Below are positions 2,579 through 25,314 of a DNA stretch of 32,000 nucleotides, piece after piece. How positions within the stretch are numbered: position 1 is the first letter of the stretch; the number at the start of each line of letters is the position of its first letter. The DNA lies in assembly GCF_000091665.1 (NCBI RefSeq), contig NC_000909.1, forward strand, positions 212,871 to 244,870, given 5' to 3'. This stretch comes from Methanocaldococcus jannaschii DSM 2661 (GTDB lineage: Archaea; AGJL01; Methanococci; Methanococcales; Methanocaldococcaceae). Both the position numbers and the translations under genes were made by a program. The notes under the pieces are model-generated. The model was not told the origin of the DNA, ran no database searches, and was given only the letters and a program-made list of their open reading frames with translations.

Positions 2579-3370
2579 GTGATGAGATTGGAGAAAGTTT
2601 TCTATCTAACCAATCCTACTACCAAAGATTTAGAAAATTTTATTGATATGTATGTGTTTAAATATATATTAATATTATTAGCTCGATGTAAAGTTTTTTA
2701 TGAAGGCAGAGCTAAAAGTCAGTTAGAAGAGGGAGATAGAGTCATTATAATAAAACCAGATGGAGCCTTTTTAATTCATAAAGATAAAAAAAGAGAACCT
2801 GTAAATTGGCAACCTTCTGGAAGTAGTATAATATGGGAAGTTGAAGATAACTTTTTCATTTTAAAAAGCATTAGAAGAAAGCCAAAAGAAGAGTTAAAGG
2901 TTGTTATTTCAGAAGTTTATCATGCATGTGCTTTTAACTGTGAAGATTATGAAGAGATAAATCTAAGGGGTAGTGAATCAGAGATGGCAGAGATGATTTT
3001 TAGAAATCCAGATTTGATTGAAGAAGGATTTAAGCCCATATCAAGAGAGTATCAGATTCCCACTGGAATCGTTGATATTTTAGGAAAAGATAAAGAGAAT
3101 AAATGGGTTATCTTAGAGCTAAAGAGAAGGAGAGCTGATTTACAGGCAGTTTCTCAACTAAAAAGGTATGTGGAATATTTTAAAAACAAATATGGTGAGG
3201 ATAAAGTTAGAGGAATTTTGGTTTCTCCCTCTTTAACTACTGGGGCGGAAAAATTGCTGAAAGAGGAGAACTTAGAATTTAAAAGACTTAATCCACCAAA
3301 AGGAAGTAAAAGAGATTTAAAACATAACATAAAAACTAAAAAAACAACAGTTTTAGATGAATGGCTATAA
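2579..3370 (+). CDS. nucS: Endonuclease NucS/EndoMS (RecB-like nuclease, mismatch/branched-DNA specific)
   Basis: 263-aa ORF. The C-terminal IPTGIVDILGKDKENKWVILELKRRRADLQAVSQLKRY is the PD-(D/E)xK core of NucS. The start could be GTG 2579 or ATG 2582. Confidence 0.85.
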   Translation: MMRLEKVFYLTNPTTKDLENFIDMYVFKYILILLARCKVFYEGRAKSQLEEGDRVIIIKPDGAFLIHKDKKREPVNWQPSGSSIIWEVEDNFFILKSIRRKPKEELKVVISEVYHACAFNCEDYEEINLRGSESEMAEMIFRNPDLIEEGFKPISREYQIPTGIVDILGKDKENKWVILELKRRRADLQAVSQLKRYVEYFKNKYGEDKVRGILVSPSLTTGAEKLLKEENLEFKRLNPPKGSKRDLKHNIKTKKTTVLDEWL

Positions 3371-3480: not shown

Positions 3481-3544
3481 CTCTCTTTATAAAAATATAC
3501 CTTATTTATTCTAAAATGTTTTGCAAAGAACTCTTGGTGAAATC

Positions 3545-4102
3545 ATGAAAATCTATTTTGCTACAGGAAATCCAAATAAAATTAAAGAAGCAAATATTAT
3601 TTTAAAAGATTTAAAAGATGTAGAGATCGAACAGATAAAAATTAGCTATCCAGAAATTCAGGGAACATTGGAAGAGGTTGCTGAATTTGGGGCAAAGTGG
3701 GTTTATAATATATTAAAAAAGCCAGTTATTGTTGAAGATAGTGGATTTTTTGTTGAGGCATTAAATGGATTTCCTGGAACATATTCAAAGTTTGTTCAAG
3801 AGACTATAGGAAATGAAGGAATTTTAAAACTCTTAGAAGGTAAAGACAATAGAAATGCCTATTTTAAAACAGTTATCGGTTACTGTGATGAGAATGGGGT
3901 TAGATTATTTAAAGGGATTGTTAAAGGTAGAGTTTCAGAAGAAATAAGAAGTAAAGGATATGGATTTGCTTATGACAGTATTTTTATCCCAGAAGAAGAA
4001 GAAAGAACTTTTGCAGAAATGACAACAGAAGAGAAAAGCCAAATCTCCCACAGAAAAAAAGCTTTTGAAGAGTTTAAAAAGTTTTTATTGGATAGGATTT
4101 AA
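3545..4102 (+). CDS. rdgB: Non-canonical NTP pyrophosphatase (ITPase/XTPase, HAM1/RdgB family)
   Basis: [16 protein letters not shown]...SHRKKAF is the HAM1 signature. ATG 3545 gives 185 aa. The ORF-track start at TTG 3521 is probably an upstream extension. Confidence 0.9.
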
Positions 4103-4666
4103 ATGGTTTCTAATAGTTTTTTCAACATTTCCATCTCTATCTATTAAATAAATACTAAAAAATAATCTTGATTTTGGAACTAAAATGACATATTTTGTGT
4201 TATTTTTAGATTTTATTTTATATCCTTTAAAAAACTTCCAAGGTAAAACAATATAACGGTTTAAAAATGGTTTTAAAGTGTTGAATATTTTAATATATAC
4301 TGCAATTCCTTCTTTATAAATCTCAACAGTTCCAGAGGCAGGAGTGAGTTTGTCATAAATGATGGCAATAAACAAAAATATAAGCGAAAATGTTAATATC
4401 TCATCATGAGGGCGATTTATATTTATTAAAATATAAAATCCAGAACATAAAGCAATTATTTCCACTATTAATATAAAAATCCATCTGCTTCTATTCATTC
4501 CCATATTGGTTGAGGTTATATAGTGCCATTCTTCTTTTGCTTTTCTGTATTTTTTGTATAGAAGATAATCCAAAATACAATAGGGAGGATTGAAAATTAT
4601 AAAGAGTGCTATCAAATAAGGAGTAAGAAATAAAACTACTATCAATAAAATTAACTCAATATCCAT
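4085..4666 (-). CDS. Membrane protein of unknown function (3-4 N-terminal TM helices plus a soluble C-terminal domain); intact paralog of the neighbouring disrupted gene
   Basis: 193-aa ORF. It is homologous to the 4681-5293 locus: VEIYKEG...LPWKFFKGY...[18 protein letters not shown]. Its 3' end overlaps the rdgB 3' end by 18 nt. Confidence 0.75.
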
Positions 4667-4680
4667 AATAACCCCTTTAA

Positions 4681-4848
4681 TTAATGTTTAAAATGTTTTT
4701 TAAGTATTTCTTCAACTTTCCCATCTTTATCTTTTAAATATACATCTGGAGAGATATATTTTTTACCAATTAATTTTATTCTATCTCCAATTTTCTCATA
4801 GCCATCAAAACCTTTCCAAGTGTAAAATTGGTTAAAATGGTGTCTTTC
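4681..4848 (-). pseudogene. Displaced C-terminal 55 codons of the disrupted membrane-protein paralog
   Basis: Hand translation gives ERHHFNQFYTWKGFDGYEKIGDRIKLIGKKYISPDVYLKDKDGKVEEILKKHFKH, stop at 4683-4681. It aligns to the C-terminus of the 4085-4666 protein (WK.F.GY, YL.D.DG.VE). It has no start codon of its own and is in a different frame from 4925-5293. Confidence 0.7.
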
Positions 4849-8267: not shown

Positions 8268-8513
8268 TCACTCTATCTCTTCCCATTTCTTCTTCAACTC
8301 CTTAACTATTTCTTTTATCTCCTCAACATCCTTCTCTATTTTTATAAGTTTCTCATTGTCTATTGAACTTGACTGTTTTTTTAATGGAGAGATTAGGATA
8401 TATATTATTACCGCAATGATTACTACAAAAATAATCATCCAAAGAATATCGTAAAAGGGATTTATTGCGACTCCTTCACTACCTACATAATGCACTCCAA
8501 AACCCATTGGCAT
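8268..8513 (-). CDS. Small single-pass membrane protein with an acidic coiled C-terminus, co-transcribed with the ArsR regulator
   Basis: I prefer ATG 8513, preceded by AGGTGA 5 nt upstream, over the track start at TTG 8531. There is one TM helix (ILWMIIFVVIIAVIIYILI). A 4-nt gap separates it from the downstream regulator. Confidence 0.6.
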   Translation of the reverse strand: MPMGFGVHYVGSEGVAINPFYDILWMIIFVVIIAVIIYILISPLKKQSSSIDNEKLIKIEKDVEEIKEIVKELKKKWEEIE

Positions 8514-8546
8514 TATTTCACCTACAAACAAAATTTGTAATCTCTT

Positions 8547-8560
8547 AATTACATGTAATT
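8547..8560. promoter_or_regulatory. Perfect 14-bp palindrome AATTACATGTAATT, candidate operator of the ArsR-family operon
   Basis: On the minus strand it lies about 8-10 nt downstream of a TATA-like TATATTTATTTTAA and 34-47 nt upstream of ATG 8513. An extra TGTAAT half-site is at 8536-8541. Confidence 0.45.
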
Positions 8561-8670
8561 TCCAATTAAAATAAATATACTATATCCTAATACTAATATG
8601 TATATTTTTAACTACATATATTGCCAAAAAGTTATATATAGGTTTTGTTTAATTTGTTTATATAAATTTA

Positions 8671-9921
8671 TTAATTAATAATTTCACCCTTAAACACTAC
8701 TGAAGGAGAAATTAACTTCCCTCTCTGTTCAACATCGTTTAATGGGATAGCTTCTTTAAACATCTCAAATATATTCCCTCCAAACATTCCTCTTTTAATT
8801 GGAATTATCTTCCCATTTTTGTAATAGTATGAGTTTTGAATCTCAACAGCAAAATCTCCAGTTATTGGATTTGATGTGTGAGAGCCAATAACTCCATTGA
8901 TATAAACATACTCATCAAAATCATCTAAGCTATTTTTTGTTTCTTTAATAATAAAGTTTGTTGGTGAAACATAAGGTAAAGAGCGATAACCTCTTGAAGC
9001 ATTTCCAGTTGATGTTTTTCCTTCTCTATTTGCTCTCTTTATATCATATAGGTAGTTTTTCAAAACTCCATTCTCAACCAAAACTGTTTTTTGGGTAGCT
9101 GTTCCTTCACCATCACACTTTGATGAGTATAGGGCATAATCTAAAGTCCCATCATCAATTATTGTTATATTCTCTCCAAAAATCTGCTCTCCTATCTTTC
9201 CTTTTAAAACACTCCTATCCCTCTGCACATTTTCAGCACTGAATGCTGGCATTAACGTATAGGATAACAAGTCATACAATGCCCTTGGTGATAAAACTAT
9301 ATTCCCTTTGTAAGATATGGCTTTTCCATTTGCTGACTTCTTAGCTAAATCCAATGCCCTATAGCTAATTTCTTCAACATCAAAAATGTTGTGCCTTGTT
9401 CTACATTCATAGGATGTTTCTCCATCATACATTATAGATATTGCCGCAGAGAAATAAGTATCTTGTTCTTCAACATCTACGCCGTTTGAATTTATCAATC
9501 TTGCATAGCCAACCTCTTTACTAACACCTCCACTCAAAACAATGGCATTATTATCTAAGGCAATATCTCTCATGGTTATTAAATCCTCTAACAATTTTTC
9601 TTCATCTAAATCCAAAATTTCTTTATAAAACATTCCTTTTGGTTCTTTATATTTTTGTGGATGGGCAAATTCAGTATATTTATCTTCAACTAAGTTTTTC
9701 ATTGCTTTATAAACAATATTTTCATCAAATTTATTTGCATAGGCAAAGCCAACTTTCCCATCCTTTATAACTCTAACTCCAATACCGTAAGAGATTCCAG
9801 TTTGAAAGCTATCTACACTCTTTCCATCTAAATCAACACTAACCTCATAGGATTTAACAAATAAAACTTCAGTTTCAAATCCTTCTTTTTCTCCAATTTT
9901 TATTAACTTTTCTAAATCCAT
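8671..9921 (-). CDS. pmbA: TldE/PmbA-family metalloprotease component
   Basis: 416 aa. The full-length PmbA/TldD fold signature is present, including the C-terminal GDFAVEI...GG motif. Confidence 0.8.
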   Translation of the reverse strand: MDLEKLIKIGEKEGFETEVLFVKSYEVSVDLDGKSVDSFQTGISYGIGVRVIKDGKVGFAYANKFDENIVYKAMKNLVEDKYTEFAHPQKYKEPKGMFYKEILDLDEEKLLEDLITMRDIALDNNAIVLSGGVSKEVGYARLINSNGVDVEEQDTYFSAAISIMYDGETSYECRTRHNIFDVEEISYRALDLAKKSANGKAISYKGNIVLSPRALYDLLSYTLMPAFSAENVQRDRSVLKGKIGEQIFGENITIIDDGTLDYALYSSKCDGEGTATQKTVLVENGVLKNYLYDIKRANREGKTSTGNASRGYRSLPYVSPTNFIIKETKNSLDDFDEYVYINGVIGSHTSNPITGDFAVEIQNSYYYKNGKIIPIKRGMFGGNIFEMFKEAIPLNDVEQRGKLISPSVVFKGEIIN

Positions 9922-10052: not shown

Positions 10053-11336
10053 TTAAAATGGACATCTAAAGTTTCTCCCAGCATATTTGCTTAATCCTAA
10101 CTCTTGCTCAATTCTTATCAACTGATTGTATTTAGCTGTTCTCTCCCCTCTTGCTGGAGCTCCAGTCTTTATTTGTCCAGAGTTCAAAGCAACTGACAAA
10201 TCAGCTATTGTTGTATCCTCAGTCTCTCCACTTCTATGTGAAACAACTACACCATAACCATTTCTAAATGCCAATTGAGCAGCATCAACTGCCTCACTTA
10301 AAGTTCCAATCTGATTGACTTTCAAAAGCAGAGCGTTAGCAGCCTTCATCTCAATACCTTTTCTAAGCCTTTCAACATTTGTAACAAACAAGTCATCTCC
10401 AACTATCTGTATATCTAATTCTTTAGTTATCATTGCAAAGCCTTCAAAATCTTCCTCATGGAATGGGTCTTCAATTGAGACTATTGGATATTCATCAACT
10501 AATGCTTTATAGTAATCTAAAAGCTCCTCTCTTGTTAATTTTTTACCTTCAACGTAATAATATCCATCTTTATAAAACTCTGAGGCAGCAGCATCTAATG
10601 CAAAGACAACCTCATCCTCATACCCAGCCTTTTTAACACTCTCAGTTAATAAATCTAAAGCCTCCCTTGATGTTTTTAATGGTGGAGCAAAACCTCCCTC
10701 ATCTCCAACATTTACAGCATTTTTTCCATATTTTTCTAAGATGACATTTTTTAAGACATGATAAACTTCTGAACCCATCCTTACAGCTTCAGAAATTGAT
10801 GTAGCTCCAACTGGCATTATCATGAACTCTTGCAAATCTAAATCATTCCCAGCGTGTTTTCCTCCATTTATAACGTTCATCATTGGAACTGGCATGACAT
10901 AGGAGTTAAATCCCCCCAAGTATTTATAGAGAGGGATTTTTGCTGTTGCTGCTGCTGCCTTTGCTACAGCTAAAGAAACAGCCAATATGGCATTAGCTCC
11001 CAATCTTGATTTATTTGGAGTACCATCTAATTCTATCATTATTGTATCTATTTCTCTCTGCATTCTTGCATCATAACCTAAAATCTCTGGTCTAATTATT
11101 GAATTTACATTTTCAACAGCCATTAAAACTCCTTTTCCACCAAATCTCTTTTCTTTATCCCTCAACTCTAATGCCTCATGTGTTCCAGTTGATGCACCAC
11201 TTGGAACAATTGCTGAACCGTAACCATTCCCTTTTGTTATAACTTCCACTTCAACTGTTGGGTTTCCTCTTGAGTCAATTACTTCTCTTGCAACAATATC
11301 TTTAATTTCAAATCTCTCATCCATATTATATAACAA
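10053..11336 (-). CDS. eno: Enolase (2-phosphoglycerate dehydratase)
   Basis: 427 aa. [24 protein letters not shown] and SHRSGETED motifs are present. Confidence 0.97.
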
Positions 11337-11407
11337 ATTATCACCTAATAGATATTTTTAAATACTTTAATTATGAATTTTTATAATAAACTTGGAGGTG
11401 AAGTTAT

Positions 11408-23299: not shown

Positions 23300-23693
23300 A
23301 TCTTCCATCCATTTTTTAATAATTTGTTTATCACGTTGGAAAAGTTTTATATTTGATAATAATTAATTTGAAATTTTTATTTGGTTATTTAATATAATTT
23401 TATCTTATTTCTAAGGGTTTGCTGGTTTGATTATTTGGAATATTTAAGTTTATTGAATTATTTAGATTTTTAAAAATTAGGATTAATTAGAAGAATAAAT
23501 AAAATTTCTCTAACAAATAAGTTAAATTTTTGAATTTAAAAAGATAAAAATGCTTTGTTTTAGTAAAGGGAGAAAGATTTAAATACTAAAAGGTTTATAT
23601 TATGAGATAGTTACCCAACCTTAGAAAAATAAGGTATAGGAAAGCTTAAATATTAGAAAAGTAAAAGTATGTTATGTTGTTGATGATTGTCCT
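23300..23693 (+). promoter_or_regulatory. CRISPR leader (AT-rich, about 390 bp)
   Basis: Non-coding AT-rich tract directly upstream of the intact-repeat end of the array. It contains TATA-like boxes (for example TTTATATTAT near 23594 and TTAAATAT near 23646). The degenerate repeats are at the opposite end of the array. Confidence 0.6.
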
Positions 23694-25314
23694 ATTAAAA
23701 TCAGACCGTTTCGGAATGGAAATGATATTATTAAACAACATAATCAGTGTAATTGTATAGATATGATTAAAATCAGACCGTTTCGGAATGGAAATATTTG
23801 ATGATTTGGTGGATTATACAAATAGAAATTAATTAAAATCAGACCGTTTCGGAATGGAAATTACTGTTAAATATTCAGATTTATTAATCAGTTATTTCCT
23901 ATTAAAATCAGACCGTTTCGGAATGGAAATGATTTTCTTATGTTTAAAATCCTTATGAACGCTCGGATATTAAAATCAGACCGTTTCGGAATGGAAATTC
24001 TTTATCTCTCTTTACAGTATCGTATCTTAATTTTATTAAAATCAGACCGTTTCGGAATGGAAATTTTTCAACAAGCATTTCTAACAAGTTTGGAGGTAAT
24101 ACTGCAACAATTTCAGTTAAAATCAGACCGTTTCGGAATGGAAACGTGATTGTAGAATTCTCATCTTCTTCTTGGGAGAGCCGATTAAAATCAGACCGTT
24201 TCGGAATGGAAATGATTGGATGAGGGATATATCCAAAACTCAAAAGGATTGATTAAAATCAGACCGTTTCGGAATGGAAATCTGTTAGGGAACCCTAAAA
24301 AGGTTCCCTTGAGGGTTCATTAAAATCAGACCGTTTCGGAATGGAAATCTGTTAGGGAACCCTAAAAAGGTTCCCTTGAGGGTTCATTAAAATCAGACCG
24401 TTTCGGAATGGAAATCTGTTAGGGAACCCTAAAAAGGTTCCCTTGAGGGTTCATTAAAATCAGACCGTTTCGGAATGGAAATCTGTTAGGGAACCCTAAA
24501 AAGGTTCCCTTGAGGGTTCATTAAAATCAGACCGTTTCGGAATGGAAATCTGTTAGGGAACCCTAAAAAGGTTCCCTTGAGGGTTCATTAAAATCAGACC
24601 GTTTCGGAATGGAAATCTGTTAGGGAACCCTAAAAAGGTTCCCTTGAGGGTTCATTAAAATCAGACCGTTTCGGAATGGAAATCTGTTAGGGAACCCTAA
24701 AAAGGTTCCCTTGAGGGTTCATTAAAATCAGACCGTTTCGGAATGGAAATTCATTTGCATCATTTGTGCTGGGTCTGGCTGACTCTGTGTGTCATTAAAA
24801 TCAGACTGTTTCGGAATGGAAATTTCTTGGAATTGCTAAGTGGTTTATGCATAGTTGCATTAAAATCAGACCGTTTCGGAATGGAAATATGAGATTCATT
24901 CTTTGATCGAGGGCGATAGAGGTTCATTAAAATCAGACCGTTTCGGAATGGAAATGAATTTTCGCACACGCGCTACATCTAATAAACAGATTTGATTAAA
25001 ATCAGACCGTTTCGGAATGGAAATGATGAAAAGAAAGCAATTGAAACAGCTATTATAACTTAATTAAAATCAGACCGTTTCGGAATGGAAATATACCATT
25101 AACAATTTCATATATTCTGTTTTTGTATTCAATCTTTTTATTAAAATCAGACCGTTTCGGAATGGAAACGCATAGATTATTTTTAAGCTGTTTTTTGGAT
25201 TTTCTAATTTTAAATTATTAAAATCAGACCGTTTCGGAATGGGAACAATGTTCTAAATTCTCCTTGTAATTCTCCTAATGTTGTATTAAAATCAGACCGT
25301 TTCGGAATAGAAAT
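23694..25314 (+). CRISPR. CRISPR array: 24 repeats of 30 nt and 23 spacers (35-51 nt)
   Basis: Consensus repeat ATTAAAATCAGACCGTTTCGGAATGGAAAT. Repeat starts: 23694, 23766, 23832, 23901, 23969, 24035, 24116, 24184, 24252, 24319, 24386, 24453, 24520, 24587, 24654, 24721, 24794, 24859, 24926, 24995, 25063, 25140, 25217, 25285. Variant repeats start at 24116, 24794, 25140, 25217 and 25285. Degeneracy at the right end, together with the ATGGAAAT 3' handle, indicates plus-strand transcription. Confidence 0.98.

Follow-up and report, generated by a model that had tools for sequence, protein, structure and literature searches.

A seven-copy CRISPR spacer in Methanocaldococcus jannaschii corresponds to what is probably the replication origin of a small plasmid from the same genus

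The origins of bacterial iteron plasmids are built from iteron arrays, and these plasmids are subject to iteron-mediated incompatibility. The phage ICP1 nuclease Odn is reportedly aimed at origin iterons of this kind, those of the PLE satellite. The spacer considered here, of which seven copies lie in tandem in a CRISPR array of Methanocaldococcus jannaschii, resembles the Odn/PLE case as a sequence-specific defence against the iterons of a rival replicon's origin. The two cases differ in that Odn is a protein nuclease operating in a conflict between phage and satellite, with neither a CRISPR spacer nor an amplification involved.

Tandem copies of a spacer have been described before. In Xanthomonas citri, spacer Xcc_02 is present in two, three or four tandem copies (PMC9504256), and the CRISPRDetect paper mentions "seven identical spacers in a 24 repeat array" in M. 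jannaschii (Biswas et al. 2016, PMC4869251). Because the stretch analysed here belongs to M. jannaschii DSM 2661 and its array has 24 repeats, the CRISPRDetect array is the present locus. The X. citri and M. jannaschii arrays share contiguous identical spacer-repeat units within an otherwise normal array (PMC9504256), but M. jannaschii has seven copies rather than two to four, and its spacer carries inverted iterons and can be assigned to a plasmid target. For CRISPRDetect (PMC4869251) the array serves as a software test case, and the paper gives no target, protospacer-adjacent motif (PAM), mechanism or link to a plasmid origin. Both the type of event and the present instance are already known; in the literature we found no PAM, nor any report that the target is the iteron-type origin of a family of small Methanocaldococcus plasmids. 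The assignment of target and PAM is a useful annotation-level result, not a new kind of system.

The array and its sevenfold run

Within the 32-kb window (the whole stretch of 32,000 nucleotides analysed), the repeat parser and Rfam delineate a CRISPR array at 23694-25314 on the plus strand, whose 24 repeats are 30 nt long and whose 23 spacers measure 35-51 nt. The consensus repeat, ATTAAAATCAGACCGTTTCGGAATGGAAAT, is exact in 19 of the 24 repeats, with one or two changes in the other five, and all 24 exceed the Rfam CRISPR-DR13 gathering score on the plus strand. The repeats are direct, regular and near-identical, with a length inside the 24-47 nt range used as a criterion for such arrays. One variant (GTT...AAAC, 24116-24145, plus strand) lies two units upstream of the amplified run, another (C to T at position 14, 24794-24823, plus strand) is the first repeat past it, and three degenerate terminal repeats (25140-25314, plus strand) occupy the old, or trailer, end. 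Because the most degenerate repeats are found at 25140-25314, the leader was assigned to the AT-rich stretch upstream of 23694; it spans 23300-23693 on the plus strand, directly upstream of the first repeat, and corresponds to the multi-copy 'long repeat' of M. jannaschii. AT-rich leader and degenerate repeats thus mark opposite ends of the array. A TATA-like sequence in the leader, TTTATATTA (23594-23602), is a candidate promoter element. The organisation of the M. jannaschii genome into long repeat (LR)/leader plus short repeats has been described (Haft 2005), and short-read contigs approaching from the PCNA side all end at ~23416-23525, within the leader, where its multi-copy element is taken to start, for which reason we judge the leader to be multi-copy and common to the CRISPR loci of this organism.

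The array sits in the MJ0247-MJ0254 region of M. jannaschii DSM 2661, with MJ0247 (PCNA), MJ0251 and MJ0254 (RadB) among its flanks. On one side are dapA and the genes for chorismate mutase, PCNA, a GINS subunit, L44e and S27e; on the other are those for ferredoxin, pyrF, HycI, RadB, ComA and ComDE. These neighbours are all housekeeping genes, and no cas genes were found within the 32-kb window, where the sole Cas-related Pfam match was to Cas4 at 20.0 bits (cutoff 22.7) on the NucS open reading frame (ORF). The NucS endonuclease gene itself (2579-3370, plus strand; Pfam NucS_N and NucS_C) is unrelated to the array. According to the literature, Csa3 is MJ0379, away from the array in the M. jannaschii genome, and the organism is classed as type I-A plus partial III-A (PMC7694759). 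As its cas genes lie outside the window, elsewhere in the genome, the array is an orphan, which is normal for the multi-array M. jannaschii. Two minus-strand ORFs inside the array, at 23953-24243 (96 aa) and 24760-24969 (69 aa), were rejected as repeat artefacts, as FPFRNGLIL or FPFRNSLIL recurs in them once per CRISPR repeat. In Methanocaldococcus sp. 10A (L028, CP187542.1) the array is absent downstream of S27e, the syntenic site, so the array locus is not conserved between M. jannaschii and 10A; the same 10A sequence carries a TnpB/IS605-family gene (Cas12f1-like_TNB) at 8429-9733, adjoining PCNA.

The amplified run occupies 24252-24750 on the plus strand and consists of eight consensus repeats around seven identical 37-nt spacers, that is, a 67-bp unit repeated seven times. 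The spacer, CTGTTAGGGAACCCTAAAAAGGTTCCCTTGAGGGTTC, fills spacer positions 9-15 of 23, and its copies lie on the plus strand at 24282-24318, 24349-24385, 24416-24452, 24483-24519, 24550-24586, 24617-24653 and 24684-24720, each an exact pattern match. Tandem Repeats Finder places the run at 24245-24750 (period 67, 7.6 copies, 99% matches, score 998). Direct reading, the repeat parser, Tandem Repeats Finder and the pattern search thus agree with the earlier note, made from the letters alone, which had described seven perfect 67-bp units at these spacer positions; its further statement that the other 16 spacers are unique was borne out by the repeat parser. Allowing up to three mismatches, the pattern search met no further copy of the spacer in the window, and 100 shuffles gave 0 matches. 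Every one of the eight repeats bounding the run (24252...24750) is the consensus. The mutual uniqueness of the spacers, to which the remaining 16 conform, is broken by the seven identical ones, which is a known kind of variant. The units are contiguous and have the same spacer, the same boundaries and the same flanking repeats with 0 mismatches, the features expected of tandem duplication.

Each copy of the spacer contains an inverted iteron pair, AGGGAACC ... GGTTCCCT (24287-24309 in the first copy), which forms a hairpin stem of 8-10 bp and recurs every 67 bp. The run holds 14 GGGAACC/GGTTCCC words, the only ones in the 32-kb window (0.7 expected). This inverted pair gives the amplified spacer a self-complementarity that none of the other 16 distinct spacers approaches: its minimum free energy as DNA is -7.3/-8.3 kcal/mol, versus -3.7 for the next-best. 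As RNA, the hairpin amounts to -14.4 kcal/mol at 37 °C and -1.9 at the growth temperature of 85 °C, where it is marginal; DNA folding at 85 °C yielded implausible structures that were disregarded.

The match on plasmid pI and its PAM

The earlier note had suggested a protospacer search, and this led to a plasmid. BLAST of the 37-mer against PLSDB returned one record, plasmid pI of Methanocaldococcus lauensis SG7 (NZ_LR792633.1, 5142 bp, circular), which matches the spacer at 36 of 37 positions. The protospacer lies at pI 4703-4739 on the crRNA-sense strand, in a noncoding site, with the mismatch at spacer position 32. The three bases directly 5′ of it are CCT (flank ...TTCCT). Type I-A systems use a CCN triplet 5′ of the crRNA-sense strand as their functional PAM, and reconstituted type I-A Cascade was active in vitro on both CCT and CCA (PMC4005679); the chance of finding CC at this position is ~2% in a plasmid of 29% GC. 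The amplified spacer therefore matches a mobile element with an accompanying PAM. No annotated pI gene transcribes the strand complementary to the crRNA, which makes DNA interference by the type I-A system more plausible than RNA-dependent type III targeting.

The amplified spacer is the only one of the 17 distinct spacers with an identifiable target; the other spacers of the array gave no match in the plasmids, phages or loci fetched. An exact scan of the genome and viral collections with the 25-mer core of the spacer was blank, and its scope is bounded by the fact that the source genome and M. lauensis pI are themselves not visible there, or are masked. The 21-mer core likewise had no match in viral contigs. 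Three metagenome matches to the 21-mer were unrelated sequences, mostly GC-rich hairpins lacking iteron clusters, and were put down to chance, and a phage BLAST gave only 25-nt, 92% matches to terminator-like hairpins of enterobacterial phages, which were dismissed. The sole protospacer found thus belongs to another species from another vent field and carries one mismatch, and no collection searched holds a pI-like plasmid of M. jannaschii DSM 2661. Spacer 18 (24889-24925) ends in GAGGTTC, similar to the GAGGGTTC end of the amplified spacer and to GAAGGTTC of pI; as it matches nothing anywhere searched, this likeness is probably coincidental.

An origin-like region and its neighbouring probable Rep

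The site matched by the spacer has a distinctive setting. The single large ORF of plasmid pI (1108-4338) encodes 1076 aa; behind it lie ~400 bp of noncoding DNA, and all ten GGGAACC/GGTTCCC words of the plasmid fall within 4403-4741 (0.12 expected). From left to right, three direct iterons with 10-bp spacing (4403, 4413 and 4423) and an inverted one (4437) form a cluster at 4403-4443; a T-rich tract separates this cluster from two direct copies at 4506 and 4515; one inverted copy follows at 4641; and a right-hand cluster of one direct (4709) and two inverted iterons (4723 and 4735) constitutes the protospacer. A long imperfect inverted repeat (4338-4411 / 4733-4806) encloses the whole region. 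With its clustered repeats, their helical spacing, the A/T-rich tract and the adjoining rep ORF, this is the layout of an iteron origin, and the protospacer is the right-hand iteron cluster of this probable pI replication origin.

The large ORF is likely the replication protein, Rep. Residues 120-359 give DNA primase/polymerase PHROG matches (E = 1e-5), the motifs Y-D-L-D-S-D and G-Y-H-I-F are invariant, a Walker A/B pair (GKSGKGKS / LLDE) is present, and the C-terminus has weak winged-helix (wHTH) matches. Residues 491-984 are 34-38% identical to ORFs of pURB500 (Methanococcus maripaludis C5) and of a M. okinawensis plasmid. No Pfam or NCBIfam family was reached at threshold, nor was there a PDB sequence match with either the single sequence or a profile, and the AlphaFold2 model (pLDDT 42) was too poor for a fold search. 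The architecture presumably resembles that of the pRN1 ORF904-type replication proteins, which join a primase-polymerase, a P-loop helicase and a winged helix.

Five relatives of the pI Rep, at 73-92% identity, were found in metagenomes and on a contig of M. villosus KIN24-T80; the related-locus search confirmed none in the genome and viral contigs, and we found no paper describing this Rep-only Methanocaldococcus replicon family. Wherever the downstream region is present, the origin layout is common to the six replicons, in the order three direct plus one inverted, T-tract, two direct, one inverted, and one direct plus two inverted, yet the iteron word differs in all six: AGGGAACC in pI, AGGGAAC in L019, AGGGAATG in L018, AAGGGAAGGT in L014, AAGATACC in L016 and ATGTCCCCC in L017. 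The origin regions lie at 4338-4806 (L010), 4040-4400 (L016), 4125-4625 (L019), 1-290 and 11295-11375 (L018), 4020-4083 (L014) and 3490-3659 (L017). L018 is the M. villosus KIN24-T80 contig (APMM01000029.1, 11375 bp); because its origin region is split between both contig ends, it is probably a circular plasmid. Beside its rep lies a gene for a 1166-aa N6-methyltransferase / Eco57I-like protein (type IIG restriction-modification-like).

A constant layout combined with a changing word beside rep is the signature of Rep-binding iterons, and the words here are putative Rep-binding sites. The Rep of L014 is 92% identical to that of pI and yet its iteron differs, which suggests rapid switching of specificity; a windowed comparison of Rep identity with iteron word gave no clear signal. 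The pI region resembles bacterial iteron origins in its 10-bp-spaced direct and inverted repeats, its A/T-rich tract and its neighbouring rep gene, and the family resembles them also in that the repeat word varies between related plasmids at constant layout. Unlike the bacterial paradigm, the family is archaeal, and its origin, Rep binding and incompatibility are putative.

Origin and meaning of the run

We consider it likely that the spacer came from a plasmid and was multiplied afterwards, when CRISPR repeats recombined unequally or slipped against each other; the additional crRNA would be a by-product. One ordinary spacer would have been taken up from a small Rep-only plasmid resembling M. 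lauensis pI, and the 67-bp repeat-plus-spacer unit would then have grown to seven tandem copies as the identical 30-bp CRISPR repeats misaligned, whether in unequal homologous recombination or through replication slippage. With one duplication in place, misaligned copies can pair over 97 bp or more instead of 30 bp, which would have eased the later steps. A hairpin flanked by direct repeats is well known to favour replication slippage, which makes a link between hairpin and amplification plausible: the inverted-iteron hairpin, the strongest among the spacers of the array, may in this one case have favoured misalignment. As a result, seven of the 23 crRNA units of the array would carry a single guide, and it is in this stoichiometric sense only that the crRNA would be the top product of the locus, as the earlier note had anticipated. 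The sense strand of the 67-bp unit has no T-run (a T5 occurs on the antisense strand), and transcription into the older spacers should therefore not be blocked. With this guide, the type I-A system would attack the DNA of the plasmid at its origin.

Other readings concern whether the run is real and whether its copies arose by copying at all. The count of seven comes from a single 1996 assembly; no contig in the collections searched spans the run, and a search for records of the two spurious in-array ORFs, intended to find crossing contigs, returned none. The run (506 bp by Tandem Repeats Finder) is also about as long as a mid-1990s Sanger read, so that seven could be the product of a collapse, and thereby a lower bound, or be inexact in some other way. 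On the artefact reading, the true locus has one copy, or a number quite unlike seven, that the 1996 shotgun mis-resolved. However, perfect tandem repeats are collapsed by assemblers rather than expanded; with a run close to one Sanger read in length, a wrong count is likelier to be too low than too high, and a true single copy is very unlikely. The old spacers next to the trailer recur unchanged in at least nine independent assemblies, and the two longest of these pass 8-9 CRISPR repeats and then halt at the run border. One of these, the NCBI third-party assembly L001 (GCA_013329685.1), breaks off inside the repeat at 24721-24750; L009, a contig from JGI, continues for another 47 nt, past one full amplified spacer, and so confirms in an independent data set that the amplified spacer adjoins spacer 16. 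Stops at and just inside the border are what a looped assembly graph predicts and, as soft evidence, fit two or more tandem units. L001 also has a run of N in the array (~430-486 of its reverse complement, window ~25160-25140) with the stretch around it duplicated, either a scaffold gap or masking, and short reads resolve this locus poorly. Of the three origins proposed in the earlier note, repeat-mediated recombination or slippage is therefore the best supported, and an artefact in the form of a single copy is unlikely given where the contigs stop; artefact as a whole seems to us very improbable. Still harder to credit is a series of seven independent, consecutive acquisitions of one protospacer at the leader end, in front of which eight newer spacers were then added. 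A proper PAM does accompany the protospacer, and origins and fork-stall sites can be acquisition hotspots, but spacer length varies from 35 to 51 nt across the array and yet all seven copies have the same boundaries, at 37 nt, which favours copying over separate acquisitions, and nothing would select for a sevenfold uninterrupted re-acquisition in one lineage.

The remaining alternatives accept the amplification and attribute it to a benefit or to the iterons themselves. More crRNA might have been selected to raise the dose of a weak, self-folding guide acting against the bound or structured origin of a multicopy plasmid, in which case lineages with more copies would clear the plasmid better. 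It accords with this that, of 17 spacers, a target could be identified for the amplified one alone, as do the strong self-complementarity of the spacer and the position of its target within an iteron cluster; moreover, a homogeneous seven-copy run should be recombinationally unstable, so its persistence would hint at recency or selection. Drift, however, can yield seven copies once a duplication exists, DSM 2661 has no pI-like plasmid in any collection searched, and the hairpin is nearly melted at 85 °C, and we regard selected amplification as rather unlikely. Considerably less probable is that the run acts, independently of Cas, as a chromosomal iteron decoy that titrates or handcuffs Rep and was amplified for this reason, or that forks stalled by Rep drove the expansion. 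Each unit does carry one intact inverted iteron pair identical to that of pI, the run offers 14 iterons against ten on the plasmid, and cloned iterons cause incompatibility in bacterial iteron plasmids. Yet we know of no demonstration of iteron incompatibility for archaeal plasmids, the case is built purely by analogy on a Rep-iteron binding that is putative in this family, and the simpler reading, a plasmid-derived CRISPR spacer expanded by recombination or slippage, accounts for all observations.

The run alone is an oddity already known from a much-studied genome, and the added value lies in its target. The sole amplified spacer of the array points to origin iterons in a family of small, as yet uncharacterised plasmids from hyperthermophilic methanogens. 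Its match to pI provides a rare link between host and element for Methanocaldococcus and, with CCT, a first data point on the PAM used by type I-A in M. jannaschii. Rep together with the ~400-bp origin is a candidate minimal replicon for vectors in a genus with few genetic tools. The run also offers a clean test of how spacer copy number relates to crRNA dose and immunity, and of captured iterons as decoys; if the decoy reading were true, an origin-derived CRISPR spacer would double as an incompatibility determinant.
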